A stretch of 22,976 nt of DNA, taken from a virus (Duplodnaviria > Heunggongvirae > Uroviricota > Caudoviricetes). The DNA is taken from IMG/VR virus record IMGVR_UViG_2563366959_000008, one strand, 5' to 3'. The notes beneath the pieces are model-generated. The model was not told the DNA's origin, did no database searches, and worked only from the letters and a program-made list of their open reading frames with translations. The translations under genes and the position numbers were made by a program. Shown one piece after another: positions 6,674 to 22,976 of this stretch (positions are counted from its first letter, which is position 1; every line of letters starts with the position of its first letter).

Positions 6674-6800
6674 ACTACAGGCGCTACGTCAGGCGCGCCT
6701 TGATTTATTAACCGGTAAACGGGTGGTGTCTGTCCAGAAAGATGGTCGCAGAATTGAATATACGGTGGCTTCTCTGGATGAGCTTAACCGGGCGATCTGA
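6657..6800 (+). pseudogene. W: Head-tail joining gene W, 5' part (codons 1-46), truncated by the IS insertion
   Basis: ATG 6657 (GGAGGAG upstream) overlaps the 3' end of A; MVTVAELQALRQARLDLLTGKRVVSVQKDGRRIEYTVASLDELNRAI then TGA contributed by the first 3 bases of the IS. Confidence 0.8.
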
Positions 6801-6839
6801 ACCGCCCCGGGTTTCCTGGAGAGTATTTTATCTGTGAAC

Positions 6840-7730
6840 TCAGGCTGCCAGATCATTATTTCCGATGGAAGCATAATAAGCTTTTTCTGCTTCTGCCGGA
6901 GGAATATGGCCCAGCCTTTCCAGCAATCGTCGATTGTTATACCAGTCCACCCACGTTAGTGTGGCCAGTTCCACTTCTGTCCGGTTTTTCCAGCTCTTAC
7001 GGTGTATTACCTCCGCTTTGTAAAGACCATTGATGCTCTCAGCCATCGCGTTGTCATACGAGTCGCCAGTACTCCCTGTTGATGCCAGTAATCCGGCTTC
7101 CTTAAGCCGCTGCGTGTAGGCCAGCGATACATACTGAGAACCTTTATCACTGTGATGGATTGTGCCGGACGGCCGACGGGCCCACAACGCCTGCTCCAGT
7201 GCATCCAGCACGAATGTTGTTTCCATGGATGATGAGACCTGCCATCCCACGATGTATCCGGCGAACACATCAATGATGAACGCCACATAAACGAAGCCCT
7301 GCCATGTGCTTACCCAGGTAAAATCAGCCACCCACAACTGGTCTGGACGTTCTGCCACGAACTGACGGTTTACGCGGTCGCATGCGGCAACGGCTTTCCG
7401 GCTGACGGTAGTGCGGACCTTTTTACCCCGGAGAACACCGGCAAGTCCCATAACTGCCATGAGACGTGCCACAGTGCATCTGGCCACTCTGATACCTTCC
7501 CGTAACAACTGACACCAGACTTTACGCACACCGTATACCTGGTGATTTTCATCGTATACGCGCTGTATCTCTTTCTTCAGCCAGTCATCGTGCTGCGCAC
7601 GGGCACTGCGTTTATCCGGATGATGTCGCTGTTGCTGACAATGGTAATACGTTGACGGGGCAATATGCAGTTCGCTGCATACCGGTCCGACCCCGTACTG
7701 CTCACGCAGCTTATCCAGCAGTGGCATCAT
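6840..7730 (-). CDS. IS3-family transposase OrfB (DDE catalytic domain), expressed as an OrfAB fusion by -1 frameshift
   Basis: 296 aa with an rve-type integrase core (…[31 protein letters not shown]…[11 protein letters not shown]…[18 protein letters not shown]…); overlaps orfA in the -1 frame. Confidence 0.9.
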
Positions 7731-8053
7731 TTTTTCCAGAGGCGGTCGAACTCCGCCTTCGCAAAATAAGCGGAAGCCTGGCGAAGGATATCGTTACTGC
7801 GGCGCAGTTCACGATTTTCACGTTCCAGCTCTTTCAGACGCTGACGTTCAGCGCTGGTGAGCCCACCATCACCGCCCCCGGTATCCCGCTCATGCTGGCG
7901 AACCCAGACACGCAGAGTCTCCGGCGTACAGCCAATCTTTGGGGCAATGGAACAAATTGCCGCCCACTGTGAGTCATATTCATCCTGACTTTCCAGAACC
8001 ATACGAATCGCCCGCTGACGGACTTCGGGGGAAAAACGAGTATTTTTAGTCAT
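7727..8053 (-). CDS. IS3-family transposase OrfA (helix-turn-helix plus leucine-zipper part)
   Basis: 108 aa [22 protein letters not shown]…[32 protein letters not shown]; ends in an A6 run (plus-strand T6 at 7730-7735) that can act as the -1 frameshift site into orfB. Confidence 0.9.
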
Positions 8054-8107
8054 CCTGTTTACCTCTTTCTCAGGGAGTTTAGTCTCCAGGATTTCCGGGG
8101 CGGTTCA

Positions 8108-19676: not shown

Positions 19677-20420
19677 ATGACACAGACAGAATCAGCGATT
19701 CTGGCGCATGCCCGGCGGTGTGTGCCTGCGGAGTCGTGCGGCTTCGTGGTGAGAACGCCGGAGGGGGAGCGGTATATCCCTTGTGTGAATATCTCTGCAG
19801 AGCCGGAGGCGTATTTTCGTATTGCACCGGAAGACTGGCTGCGGGCAGAGATGCAGGGGGAGATTGTGGCACTGGTCCACAGTCATCCCGGTGGTCTGCC
19901 CTGGCTGAGCGAGGCTGACCGGCGGCTGCAGATAAAAAGCGCACTGCCCTGGTGGCTGGTCTGCCGGGGTGACATTCACAAATTCCGCTGCGTGCCGCAC
20001 CTGACGGGACGGCGCTTTGAGCACGGGGTGACGGACTGTTACACCCTGTTCCGGGATGCATACCATCTGGCGGGGACTGAAATGCCGGATTTTCATCGCG
20101 GGGATGACTGGTGGCGCAACGGTCAGAACCTTTACCTGGACAATATGGCGGTCACCGGCTTTTACCGGGTGCCCCTGTCCTCTGCACAGGCGGGCGATAT
20201 TCTGCTGTGCTGCTTTGGTGCTTCGGTACCGAACCATGCCGCCATATACTGCGGCAACGGTGAGCTGCTTCACCATCTGCCTGAACAACTGAGTAAACGG
20301 GAGAGGTATTCCGAAAAATGGCAACGACGAACGCATTCTGTCTGGCGTCACCGCCACTGGCACGCATCTGCCTTCACGGGGATTTACAACGATTTGGCCG
20401 CCGCCTCAGCCTGTACGTGA
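19677..20420 (+). CDS. K: Tail assembly protein K (JAMM/MPN metalloprotease-like plus NlpC/P60-like domains)
   Basis: Single 247-codon ORF; JAMM motif HSHPGGLPWLSEAD visible; the C-terminal part carries the conserved Cys (GVTDCYTLF) and His residues; overlaps the start of I in another frame. Confidence 0.9.
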   Translation: MTQTESAILAHARRCVPAESCGFVVRTPEGERYIPCVNISAEPEAYFRIAPEDWLRAEMQGEIVALVHSHPGGLPWLSEADRRLQIKSALPWWLVCRGDIHKFRCVPHLTGRRFEHGVTDCYTLFRDAYHLAGTEMPDFHRGDDWWRNGQNLYLDNMAVTGFYRVPLSSAQAGDILLCCFGASVPNHAAIYCGNGELLHHLPEQLSKRERYSEKWQRRTHSVWRHRHWHASAFTGIYNDLAAASACT

Positions 20421-20998
20421 ACACGGCAGCGGAAGCCATTCGCGCCCTGTCGATGCAGATGCCGGGCTTTCGCCGTCAGATGAACGAAGGGTGGTACCAG
20501 ATACGTATTGCCGGTGAGGACACGGCACCGGAGGCGGTGTACGCCCGTCTTCACGAACAGCTGGGTGAGGGAACGGTCATCCACATTGTGCCGCGACTGG
20601 CCGGGGCCGGAAAGGGTGGACTGCAGATTGTGCTGGGGGCGGCAGCCATCGTGGGCTCTTTCTTCACTGCCGGAGGCTCGATGGCGTTATGGGGTACAGC
20701 CCTGAGTGCCGGTGGTTTTTCTGCCACCACGATGCTGTTTTCACTGGGTGCCAGTATGATTCTGGGCGGTGTGGCCCAGATGCTGGCCCCGAAGGCAAAA
20801 ACACCGGATTACCGCGCAACGGATAACGGCAGACAGAACACGTATTTTTCGTCACTGGACAACATGATTGCCCAGGGTAACCCGATGCCGGTGCCTTACG
20901 GGGAAATGCTGGTTGGTTCACGACGGATATCCCAGGACATCAGCACCCGTGATGAAGGCGGGGGCGGAAAGGTCGTGGTTATCGGGCGGCAGGGGTAA
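20318..20998 (+). CDS. I: Tail assembly protein I
   Basis: 226 aa; ARICL.GDLQRFGRR…IRAL..Q.P.FR…GWYQ.RIAG…GAVIHIVPR.AGA…QIVLGAAAI.GSFFTAG…LFSLGASM.LGGVAQMLAPKA.TP…TDNG.QNTYFSSLDNM.AQGN as recalled for lambda gpI. Confidence 0.9.
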   Translation: MATTNAFCLASPPLARICLHGDLQRFGRRLSLYVNTAAEAIRALSMQMPGFRRQMNEGWYQIRIAGEDTAPEAVYARLHEQLGEGTVIHIVPRLAGAGKGGLQIVLGAAAIVGSFFTAGGSMALWGTALSAGGFSATTMLFSLGASMILGGVAQMLAPKAKTPDYRATDNGRQNTYFSSLDNMIAQGNPMPVPYGEMLVGSRRISQDISTRDEGGGGKVVVIGRQG

Positions 20999-21012
20999 AA
21001 AGAATAAAAAAT

Positions 21013-21042
21013 CCCGCAGTGCTCACGGACAGGAACTGCGGG
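21013..21042 (-). terminator. Candidate intrinsic terminator for the minus-strand sodC transcript
   Basis: Inverted repeat cccgcagt…actgcggg; on the minus strand it is followed by a U-rich tract (the complement of aaaaagaataaaaaa at 20995-21010). Confidence 0.4.
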
Positions 21043-21160
21043 AGAGTTACGAAGATTAAGTGTAAGGAATTATTCTTATGTCACGACAAAAACATTAACT
21101 CAGAGAGGGAGGATGTGCCGTTCTTTTCAGGGAGAAAGGATTTATCGTCCTGAGGAATAA

Positions 21161-21183
21161 AGGTAAGGGGCCCGCCCCTTACC
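21161..21183 (-). terminator. GC-rich hairpin immediately 3' of sodC
   Basis: aggtaagggg-ccc-gccccttacct, a perfect 10-bp stem 8-30 nt beyond the sodC stop; the flanking T-tract is weak. Confidence 0.4.
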
Positions 21184-21190
21184 TGACTGA

Positions 21191-21718
21191 TTATTGAATG
21201 ATGCCGCAGGCCATTCTCGCACCACCACCGCCCAGGGGCTCCGGATGGTCATGATGGTTATCACCGCCAGCATGAAGCATGAGAGAACGCCCTTTAATCT
21301 CTTTTAATGAGTTCAGTCTCGGGGCCAGGACCGGGTAGTTCGCTTTTCCGTCATGCGTCACGAACAGCGCAGGGAGGTCGCCCGGGTGTCCATCCGGAGA
21401 CCAGGGGCCAAGATGTTTGCCGGTGTTTTTCGGGTCAAAGTGACCGCCAGCCGATAATGCTGCGACCGGTTTTCCGTCTTTCAGTGCCGGGGCGCAATTT
21501 CCTTTTTCGTGCACATGAAAACCATGAATGCCTTCAGACAGAGAGTGAAGGGCTGGTGTGAACAGCAGACCGTAGGGGGTCTCCTGAATGGTTATTTTTC
21601 CAATGCTGACTTCTTTTCCGTCAGCACTGACAAGGTTCATTGGGACTTCCTGTTCTGCTGCGTATCCGCATGATGCTGCTGTCAGCATGGCAATGGCAGC
21701 AATGATTTTACATTTCAT
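21191..21718 (-). CDS. sodC: Periplasmic Cu/Zn superoxide dismutase (prophage-borne SodC)
   Basis: True start [20 protein letters not shown] (signal peptide) at 21718, 175 aa; copper/zinc ligand motifs [27 protein letters not shown] and [24 protein letters not shown]. The 344-codon ORF in the track is an upstream in-frame extension into antisense J. Confidence 0.9.
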
Positions 21719-21851
21719 AAAACCCTCATTAATTCCGTTAACAGACTGAGCTTGCTGGTTACAGGGTAACAAACAGCGTTCTGATGATATCGCGCAATAG
21801 CTGTGCAATATCCTATCACTGCGATTAATAATACCAATTGAGAGGAACATT

Positions 21852-22976
21852 ATGGGCAAAGGTGGCGGCAAGGCGCACACACCGCGCGAGGCGAAGGACA
21901 ATCTCAAATCCACGCAGATGATGAGTGTGATTGATGCGATTGGTGAGGGACCGATAGAAGGCCCGGTGAAAGGCCTGCAGAGTATTCTGGTGAACAAAAC
22001 CCCGCTGACGGACACGGACGGTAATCCCGTGATACACGGTGTGACGGCGGTCTGGCGCGCCGGGGAGCAGGAGCAGACACCACCGGAAGGCTTTGAGTCC
22101 TCCGGTGCTGAAACCGGACTGGGCGTGGAAGTGACGAAGGCAAAACCGGTGACGCGCACCATTACGTCCGCGAACATTGACCGCCTGCGGGTTACCTTCG
22201 GGGTGCAGTCACTGGTGCAGACCACGTCAAAGGGCGACCGTAATCCTTCCTCTGTCCGGATTCTGATTCAGTTACAGCGTAATGGCCGCTGGGTGACGGA
22301 AAAGGACGTCACCATTAACGGCAAGACCACCTCACAGTTCCTGGCCTCGGTGATTCTGGAGAATCTGCCTCCCCGGCCCTTTAACATCCGGATGGTCAGG
22401 GAGACGGCGGACAGCACCCCGGACCAGCTGCAGAATAAGACGCTGTGGTCGTCATACACCGAAATCATCGATGTGAAACAGTGCTACCCGAACACGGCCA
22501 TTGTGGGGCTGCAGGTGGATGCGGAGCAGTTCGGCGGCCAGCAGATGACGGTGAACTACCATATCCGCGGTCGCATCATCCAGGTGCCGTCAAACTATGA
22601 CCCGGAAAAACGCACGTACAGTGGTATCTGGGACGGCAGTCTGAAACCGGCATACAGCAACAACCCGGCCTGGTGCCTGTGGGACATGCTGACTCACCCG
22701 CGCTACGGCATGGGAAAACGTCTGGGGGCGGCGGATGTGGACAAGTGGGCGCTGTATGCCATCGGGCAGTACTGCGACCAGACGGTCCCGGATGGTTTCG
22801 GGGGCACAGAGCCGCGGATGACCTTTAATGCGTACCTGTCACAACAGCGTAAGGCATGGGATGTGCTCAGTGATTTCTGCTCGGCGATGCGCTGTATGCC
22901 GGTATGGAACGGCCAGACGCTGACGTTCGTTCAGGACCGCCCGTCGGATGTGGTGTGGCCGTACACCAACAGCGAT
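21852..22976 (+). CDS. J: Tail tip / host specificity protein J (5' part; continues beyond the window)
   Basis: ATG 21852; [22 protein letters not shown]…[51 protein letters not shown]…[22 protein letters not shown]…[52 protein letters not shown]…[35 protein letters not shown] as recalled for lambda J; the frame is open to the last base. Confidence 0.9.

Follow-up and report, generated by a model that had tools for sequence, protein, structure and literature searches.

Genes for Cu/Zn superoxide dismutases (SODs) that run antisense inside the tail operons of lambdoid prophages are an established, recurrent pattern. In Salmonella phage Fels-1, sodCIII is flanked by the homologues of tail genes I and J, runs against the tail operon and starts about 140 bp from the start of J, and in Salmonella phage Gifsy-2 the prophage-borne sodCI, which encodes a dimeric periplasmic SodC and is a recognised virulence factor, sits inside the tail gene block in antisense orientation, with a lom-like gene and L as its neighbours. 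Escherichia coli O157:H7 carries SodC-F1/SodC-F2 on its prophages CP-933R and CP-933V, the two genes being told apart by nucleotide 335, which is T (Leu) in sodC-F1 and C (Pro) in sodC-F2 (D'Orazio et al., 2008; PMC2569942). In uninduced cultures, be they exponential, stationary or anaerobic, both proteins accumulate, and their expression is independent of RpoS; dual processing by the SPI and SPII routes yields a soluble periplasmic and a lipid-anchored form, and a strain without sodC-F1 and sodC-F2 is sensitive to hydrogen peroxide (PMC2569942). The interval between the I and J homologues is also the site of PasB, an 83-nt, Hfq-dependent and Northern-validated small RNA (sRNA) of enteropathogenic E. 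coli (EPEC) E2348/69, encoded at NC_011601.1 1466343..1466261 (Pearl Mizrahi et al., 2021, PMC8550237, table S6; Zhu et al., 2026, preprint).

Here we describe the I-J spacer of a 22,976-nt stretch of Caudoviricetes DNA (IMG/VR record IMGVR_UViG_2563366959_000008), referred to as the window throughout. In our reading, this region very probably holds sodC-F (F2 allele), the Cu/Zn SOD gene that prophages of pathogenic E. coli carry, as a classic moron with a predicted promoter of its own and an exported, periplasmic product, followed downstream by a separate PasB-like sRNA element.

A sodC gene antisense between tail genes I and J

The spacer between the end of gene I at 20998 and the ATG of J at 21852 spans exactly 20999-21851. 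The earlier note had placed in it a sodC gene antisense to the flanking tail genes, and this arrangement is borne out by an open reading frame on the minus strand and by Pfam calls for both neighbours (Table 1).

Table 1. Features of the I-J spacer and of its neighbours, in window coordinates.
Feature	Coordinates	Strand	Basis or remark
Tail assembly gene I (upstream neighbour)	20318..20998	+	ORF; Pfam Lambda_tail_I, 61 bits; "tail assembly protein" in matching genomes
PasB-like small RNA body, element separate from the sodC cassette	21003..21088	-	65/83 identical to PasB of E2348/69
Distal hairpin, intrinsic terminator of the PasB-like RNA	21012..21043	-	9-bp perfect arms; -16.1 kcal/mol; U6 tract 21006-21011
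sodC cassette, segment unlike sodC-less relatives	21107..21851	-	Homology break against the Stx2c phage (L002) and E2348/69 (L004) loci; GC 0.506
Proximal hairpin, sodC intrinsic terminator	21161..21184	-	10 pairs, 6 of them G-C; -17.4 kcal/mol; 7 nt past the stop codon; tail UUUAUU 21155-21160
sodC CDS, 175 aa plus stop, SodC-F2 allele	21191..21718	-	ORF, profile and structure matches, ligand alignment
Nucleotide 335 of sodC: C, Pro112 (F2); T, Leu112 (F1)	21384	-	Sole coding difference from four other loci
Signal peptide, residues 1-20, with AASC lipobox; Cys17 possible lipidation site	21659..21718	-	Sequence inspection and hydropathy
sodC 5' region	21719..21851	-	Shine-Dalgarno GAGGG at 21723-21727; also carries the J ribosome-binding site
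J ribosome-binding site GAGAGGAA	21840-21847	+	Within the sodC cassette
Tail tip gene J, 5' part (downstream neighbour; continues beyond the window)	21852..22976	+	Pfam FNIII-A_GpJ, 139 bits; gpJ in matching genomes

The product was likewise held to be a complete Cu/Zn SOD with a signal peptide and all metal ligands, and so it is: the open reading frame is intact, scores 111 bits against the Sod_Cu family (Pfam: PF00080; cut-off 28.9) and, over residues 2-174, 214.9 bits against NF007628, the SodC equivalog of NCBIfam (cut-off 165), and falls into PHROG 1975 ('superoxide dismutase precursor'), which is categorised as 'moron, auxiliary metabolic gene and host takeover'. Its closest solved structures are bacterial SodCs (E ~1e-61), including Salmonella SodCI (1eqw). 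In alignment with human SOD1, its ligands are in register: 1) the copper ligands H68, H70, H93 and H149 correspond to H46, H48, H63 and H120, 2) the zinc ligands H93, H102, H111 and D114 correspond to H63, H71, H80 and D83, with H93 as the bridging residue, and 3) the catalytic arginine R168 and the cysteine C171 are invariant with R143 and C146. The disulfide partner cysteine, C75, is kept in the three bacterial SodC sequences aligned. Of two PROSITE-style patterns, the C-terminal SOD motif matches the product and the first SOD signature does not, owing to Asn74.

The N-terminus, with a basic n-region (MKCK), a hydrophobic core (mean Kyte-Doolittle hydropathy of 2.2) followed by SCGYA|A, and an AASC lipobox, is shaped like a Sec signal peptide, and periplasmic export of the protein is predicted.

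The gene corresponds to the sodC-F2 allele of O157:H7

Alignment to prophage sodC alleles had been proposed as a check on the gene, and it places the gene with O157 sodC-F and Salmonella sodCI and sodCIII, as one of the same kind, its protein being exactly that of O157 sodC-F2. A single residue, at position 112, separates the window SodC from WP_000649829.1, the F1-type Leu112 allele, and this Pro112-for-Leu112 exchange is also the whole distance to the allele shared by E110019, E105, one EDL933 locus and two Stx2a phages. O157:H7 entries with the motif GHPGDLP, one of them from EDL933, are identical to the window SodC over the shared length, and the exact protein sequence occurs on 977 contigs in a public collection. 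Because nucleotide 335 is a C and codon 112 thereby encodes proline, the gene is sodC-F2 by the definition of D'Orazio et al. (2008) and can be annotated as such.

The likeness to the O157:H7 locus extends beyond the protein to the I-J site, the orientation, the AASC lipobox and the 133-bp spacer upstream of sodC, which is identical to that in EDL933; over 299 bp upstream of the gene there are 8 differences from EDL933, all within the J coding sequence. The gene itself does not differ from O157:H7 sodC-F2. What sets the window apart is its prophage, which has a lambda-type head/tail module ~96-99% identical to the listed genomes and an insertion sequence (IS) in a gpW-like gene. The observation made in the earlier note is therefore real, but the feature is already known, as sodC-F2, and ordinary.

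Distribution and relatives

The arrangement of I, sodC and J, counted at a coverage of at least 80% of a 1.7-kb query, is found in 542 of 5426 complete E. coli genomes, where the gene is annotated as sodC by PGAP; EDL933, E110019, E105 and the two Stx2a phages are examples. These two phages are also the only carriers of this gene among 50,697 phage records, about 150 others matching the I and J flanks only.

The Salmonella genes are more distant. Fels-1 SodCIII is 60% identical to the window SodC in amino-acid sequence, the upstream DNA of the two genes cannot be aligned, and the ~53 bp between the stop of sodCIII and that of I leave no room for a PasB-like RNA; Gifsy-2 SodCI, apart from its different site, is 58-59% identical. 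When the regions upstream of sodC in the window, Fels-1 and Gifsy-2 were aligned, no conservation was seen outside the region of the J start codon, so that no shared regulatory element can be inferred for the three. In a search for the donor of the cassette across one genome per species (GTDB), the nearest relatives were only 61-68% identical (Serratia, Pseudomonas), and thus no donor is evident. That sodC genes on prophages are accessories of fitness and virulence is recognised, and the window copy adds nothing to this; its value is one of annotation.

Boundaries of the sodC cassette

The extent of the cassette becomes apparent from comparison with relatives that lack sodC between I and J in an otherwise homologous context, namely Stx1a/Stx2c phages and prophage PP6 of E2348/69. 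Homology to the Stx2c phage and to PP6 runs from gene I to about position 21106 and returns exactly at the ATG of J, which delimits a sodC-specific segment of 745 bp (about 21107-21851). Its GC content of 0.506 (0.53 for the sodC coding sequence) is below that of gene I (0.60) and J (0.59). In place of the cassette, the sodC-less relatives have ~135 bp of other sequence, and we found no direct or inverted repeats flanking the cassette.

The earlier description of the locus as a moron inserted as a unit of about 850 bp stands in its first part, sodC being a moron: an extra gene with its own terminator (the proximal hairpin, then TTTATT) and a distinct base composition. The unit, however, comprises only the 745-bp segment and not the whole spacer, and it took the place of ~135 bp instead of being purely inserted. 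Lost with the sequence that the cassette replaced were the promoter of PasB, a terminator on the plus strand ahead of J and the original ribosome-binding site of J. The I-J spacer of lambdoid prophages is a small hot spot, occupied in different relatives by an sRNA gene together with its promoter and terminator, by a terminator on the plus strand ahead of J, or by a sodC cassette overwriting part of these.

A PasB-like element downstream of sodC

Two hairpins, one of them with a U-tract, had been noted after sodC and assigned to its expression unit. Both are present, but by our scan criteria both are followed by T-rich tails (TTTATT and T6), and the distal one belongs to another element. With the PasB of PP6, the segment that contains it shares the site right after gene I, the strand, the identity given in Table 1 and the stem CCCGCAG/CTGCGGG followed by a U-tract, while the two differ in the loop and in the 5' portion; the probe used for PasB in Northern blots (AATCCCGCAGTG...) overlaps the stem of the distal hairpin. 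The segment folds as a typical sRNA, with an open 5' part, a terminator hairpin and a U-tract. Moreover, the ~110 bp after gene I, distal hairpin included, are common to sodC-less phages such as the Stx phage used above, and the PasB-like variant (90-99% identical), left without annotation in RefSeq, is found at 1759 places spread over 1257 complete E. coli genomes, more than twice the number of genomes with sodC (1257 vs 542).

These observations bear on a simpler account, in which the two hairpins would be tandem terminators of one sodC transcript with nothing but plain 3' UTR between them. Both are indeed terminator-like on the minus strand and downstream of sodC, and the window has no promoter-like site between them; yet the distal hairpin follows gene I in far more genomes than have sodC and is present in phages without the gene, and its homologue in E2348/69 is a validated Hfq-dependent sRNA with a promoter of its own, so that we regard this account as unlikely.

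We therefore favour a PasB-like element separate from sodC. The Hfq sRNA with its own terminator would be the older resident of the I-J spacer, and the transcript of sodC would end mainly at the proximal hairpin. In E2348/69, a strong match to a promoter on the minus strand lies just upstream of PasB (TTCACA-N16-TATAAT, 11/12), and the sRNA copy of the Stx2c phage has a similar one (TTCACA-16-AATAAT, 10/12). In the window, the counterpart sequence is replaced by the sodC cassette, and no promoter-like site was found within 20700-22100. The PasB-like RNA of the window would thus have its body and its terminator, which lie ~70 nt beyond that of sodC, but no recognisable promoter, and may be either a relic or a product of read-through from sodC, since the cassette removed its promoter and kept body and terminator. 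A possible but doubtful extension is that in sodC prophages the RNA is made only by read-through of the sodC terminator, whose tail (UUUAUU) is imperfect, and by processing, as a 3'UTR-derived sRNA co-regulated with sodC-F; the alternative is a silent relic. If the former is true, the PasB-like RNA is no longer independently transcribed, unlike in EPEC E2348/69. In annotation, the second hairpin should go under the PasB family of sRNAs, as a remnant or a gene, and not as a sodC terminator.

Other assignments were considered as well. The anti-sRNAs AgvB and AsxR of enterohaemorrhagic E. coli (EHEC) were rejected as identities of the distal hairpin, as they are encoded downstream of PR' and not in tail genes. 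Rfam at gathering thresholds gave nothing in the I-J region, and the supplements of Tree et al. (2014) hold no entry for sodC or the tail genes. Under relaxed thresholds, Rfam reported STnc400, a Salmonella sRNA, at 21151-21227 (-) with 23 bits against a gathering threshold of 80, mostly driven by the hairpin and taken as noise, and a sub-threshold match to anti-hemB with 14 bits. There is also a 19-nt stretch of 84% complementarity between the loop of the PasB-like terminator (21017-21035) and the sodC coding sequence (21611-21629, nt 90-108 of the CDS), which is likely due to chance because the PasB-like segment predates sodC at the I-J site.

Tail transcription across the cassette

The position of sodC had been taken to mean that tail transcription must read through its terminators. 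Both hairpins can form on the plus strand too, but there they are followed by AGAGTTACG and GACTGATTATTG, neither of which is a T-tract, so that tail transcription meets no canonical terminator there. The one terminator-like match that this strand has in the region, a weak site of 6 pairs inside sodC, is within chance expectation, and the proposed read-through is thus not supported. If anything, a plus-strand terminator present in the sodC-less relatives was lost to the cassette. In these, the I-J interval has a terminator-like hairpin, with a stem of 9-10 bp and then TGTTTTTGTG, at 1931-1954 (+) of the PP6 locus (L004) and 2073-2096 (+) of the Stx2c phage locus (L002), and it is absent from the window. 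Late transcription in lambda is Q-antiterminated. In lytic growth, convergent late transcription would produce antisense RNA to sodC.

Expression and activity of SodC-F2

The sequence identity, the ligands, the cassette boundaries, the terminators and the distribution are observations on the window, and for lysogen expression, RpoS independence, partitioning between periplasm and membrane and the hydrogen peroxide phenotype we draw on work on the identical allele and locus (PMC2569942). On this basis, sodC-F2 would have a promoter of its own and be transcribed against the late/tail operon, and would therefore be produced in the lysogen, in which the tail genes are silent. Its precursor would be exported by way of its N-terminal signal peptide, then in part be freed by signal peptidase I as a soluble periplasmic enzyme and in part remain lipid-anchored through Cys17 after cleavage by signal peptidase II, and the dimeric enzyme would remove periplasmic superoxide, conferring more resistance to exogenous oxidative stress.

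As to the promoter, no sigma-70 consensus site for sodC was found in 20700-22100. Salmonella sodCI is under PhoPQ control; upstream of sodC in the window, a search for the PhoP box (TGTTTA-N5-TGTTTA, at most 3 mismatches) gave none. The 299-bp upstream fragment served as the sodC-F promoter in the published work, where it drove lacZ (PMC2569942).

The activity of the Pro112 form calls for some caution. Pro112 sits between the zinc ligands H111 and D114 (H111-P-G-D114), a position that is Leu, Met or Val in six homologues (SodC-F1, Fels-1 SodCIII, Gifsy-2 SodCI, the SodCs of Haemophilus ducreyi and Yersinia pseudotuberculosis, and human SOD1), and only SodC-F1, the Leu112 form, has been purified and assayed, as a very stable dimer of high specific activity (19380 U/mg; PMC2569942). 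The gene could on these grounds be intact in sequence and compromised in function, the Leu112Pro exchange weakening the zinc site of a hitch-hiking or decaying copy, and the IS in the gpW-like gene of the prophage would fit a defective carrier. Against this, the exact Pro112 protein recurs on 977 contigs with no other change, the open reading frame, signal peptide, ligands and terminator are all intact, and FLAG-tagged SodC-F2 accumulates and partitions like F1 (PMC2569942). We consider a compromised allele highly unlikely; the wide occurrence of the Pro112 protein and the reported accumulation of the tagged form argue for a functional allele, and we infer that SodC-F2 is catalytically active. 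That sodC is instead an auxiliary gene of the lytic cycle, expressed with the late genes and not for the lysogen, as its place inside the late operon and its PHROGs category might suggest, is scarcely credible, given that it is opposite in strand to every late gene, so that late transcription yields its antisense, that SodC-F accumulates in uninduced cultures (PMC2569942), and that it is found in only 2 of 50,697 phage records as against 542 bacterial genomes.

The host prophage

The window covers the late region of a lambda-type prophage, with lysis genes, a gene for a PerC-family regulator, and terminase, portal, head and tail genes, and shares 97-99% identity with prophages found in several strains of E. 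coli. It is interrupted by an IS3-family element with IS629-like ends (TGAACCGCCCCGG...) at 6798-8107 (-), flanked by a 3-bp target duplication (ATC) and containing an ALIL frameshift pseudoknot at 7656-7772. With its insertion after codon ~47, this element interrupts the gpW-like head-tail joining gene, which is intact in E105. Because of this interruption, the prophage is probably defective and unable to form infectious particles. It follows that sodC would effectively be a resident bacterial gene, and that any interplay between its transcription and that of the tail genes would be moot, with sodC itself unaffected.

In E105, the same IS is found elsewhere, between the esterase and holin genes. 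The 104-aa open reading frame at 3241-3555 (+) of the window corresponds to a gene of the near-identical E105 prophage whose annotation is PerC-family transcriptional regulator, and constitutes, between the lysis genes and the terminase, another cargo-type gene.
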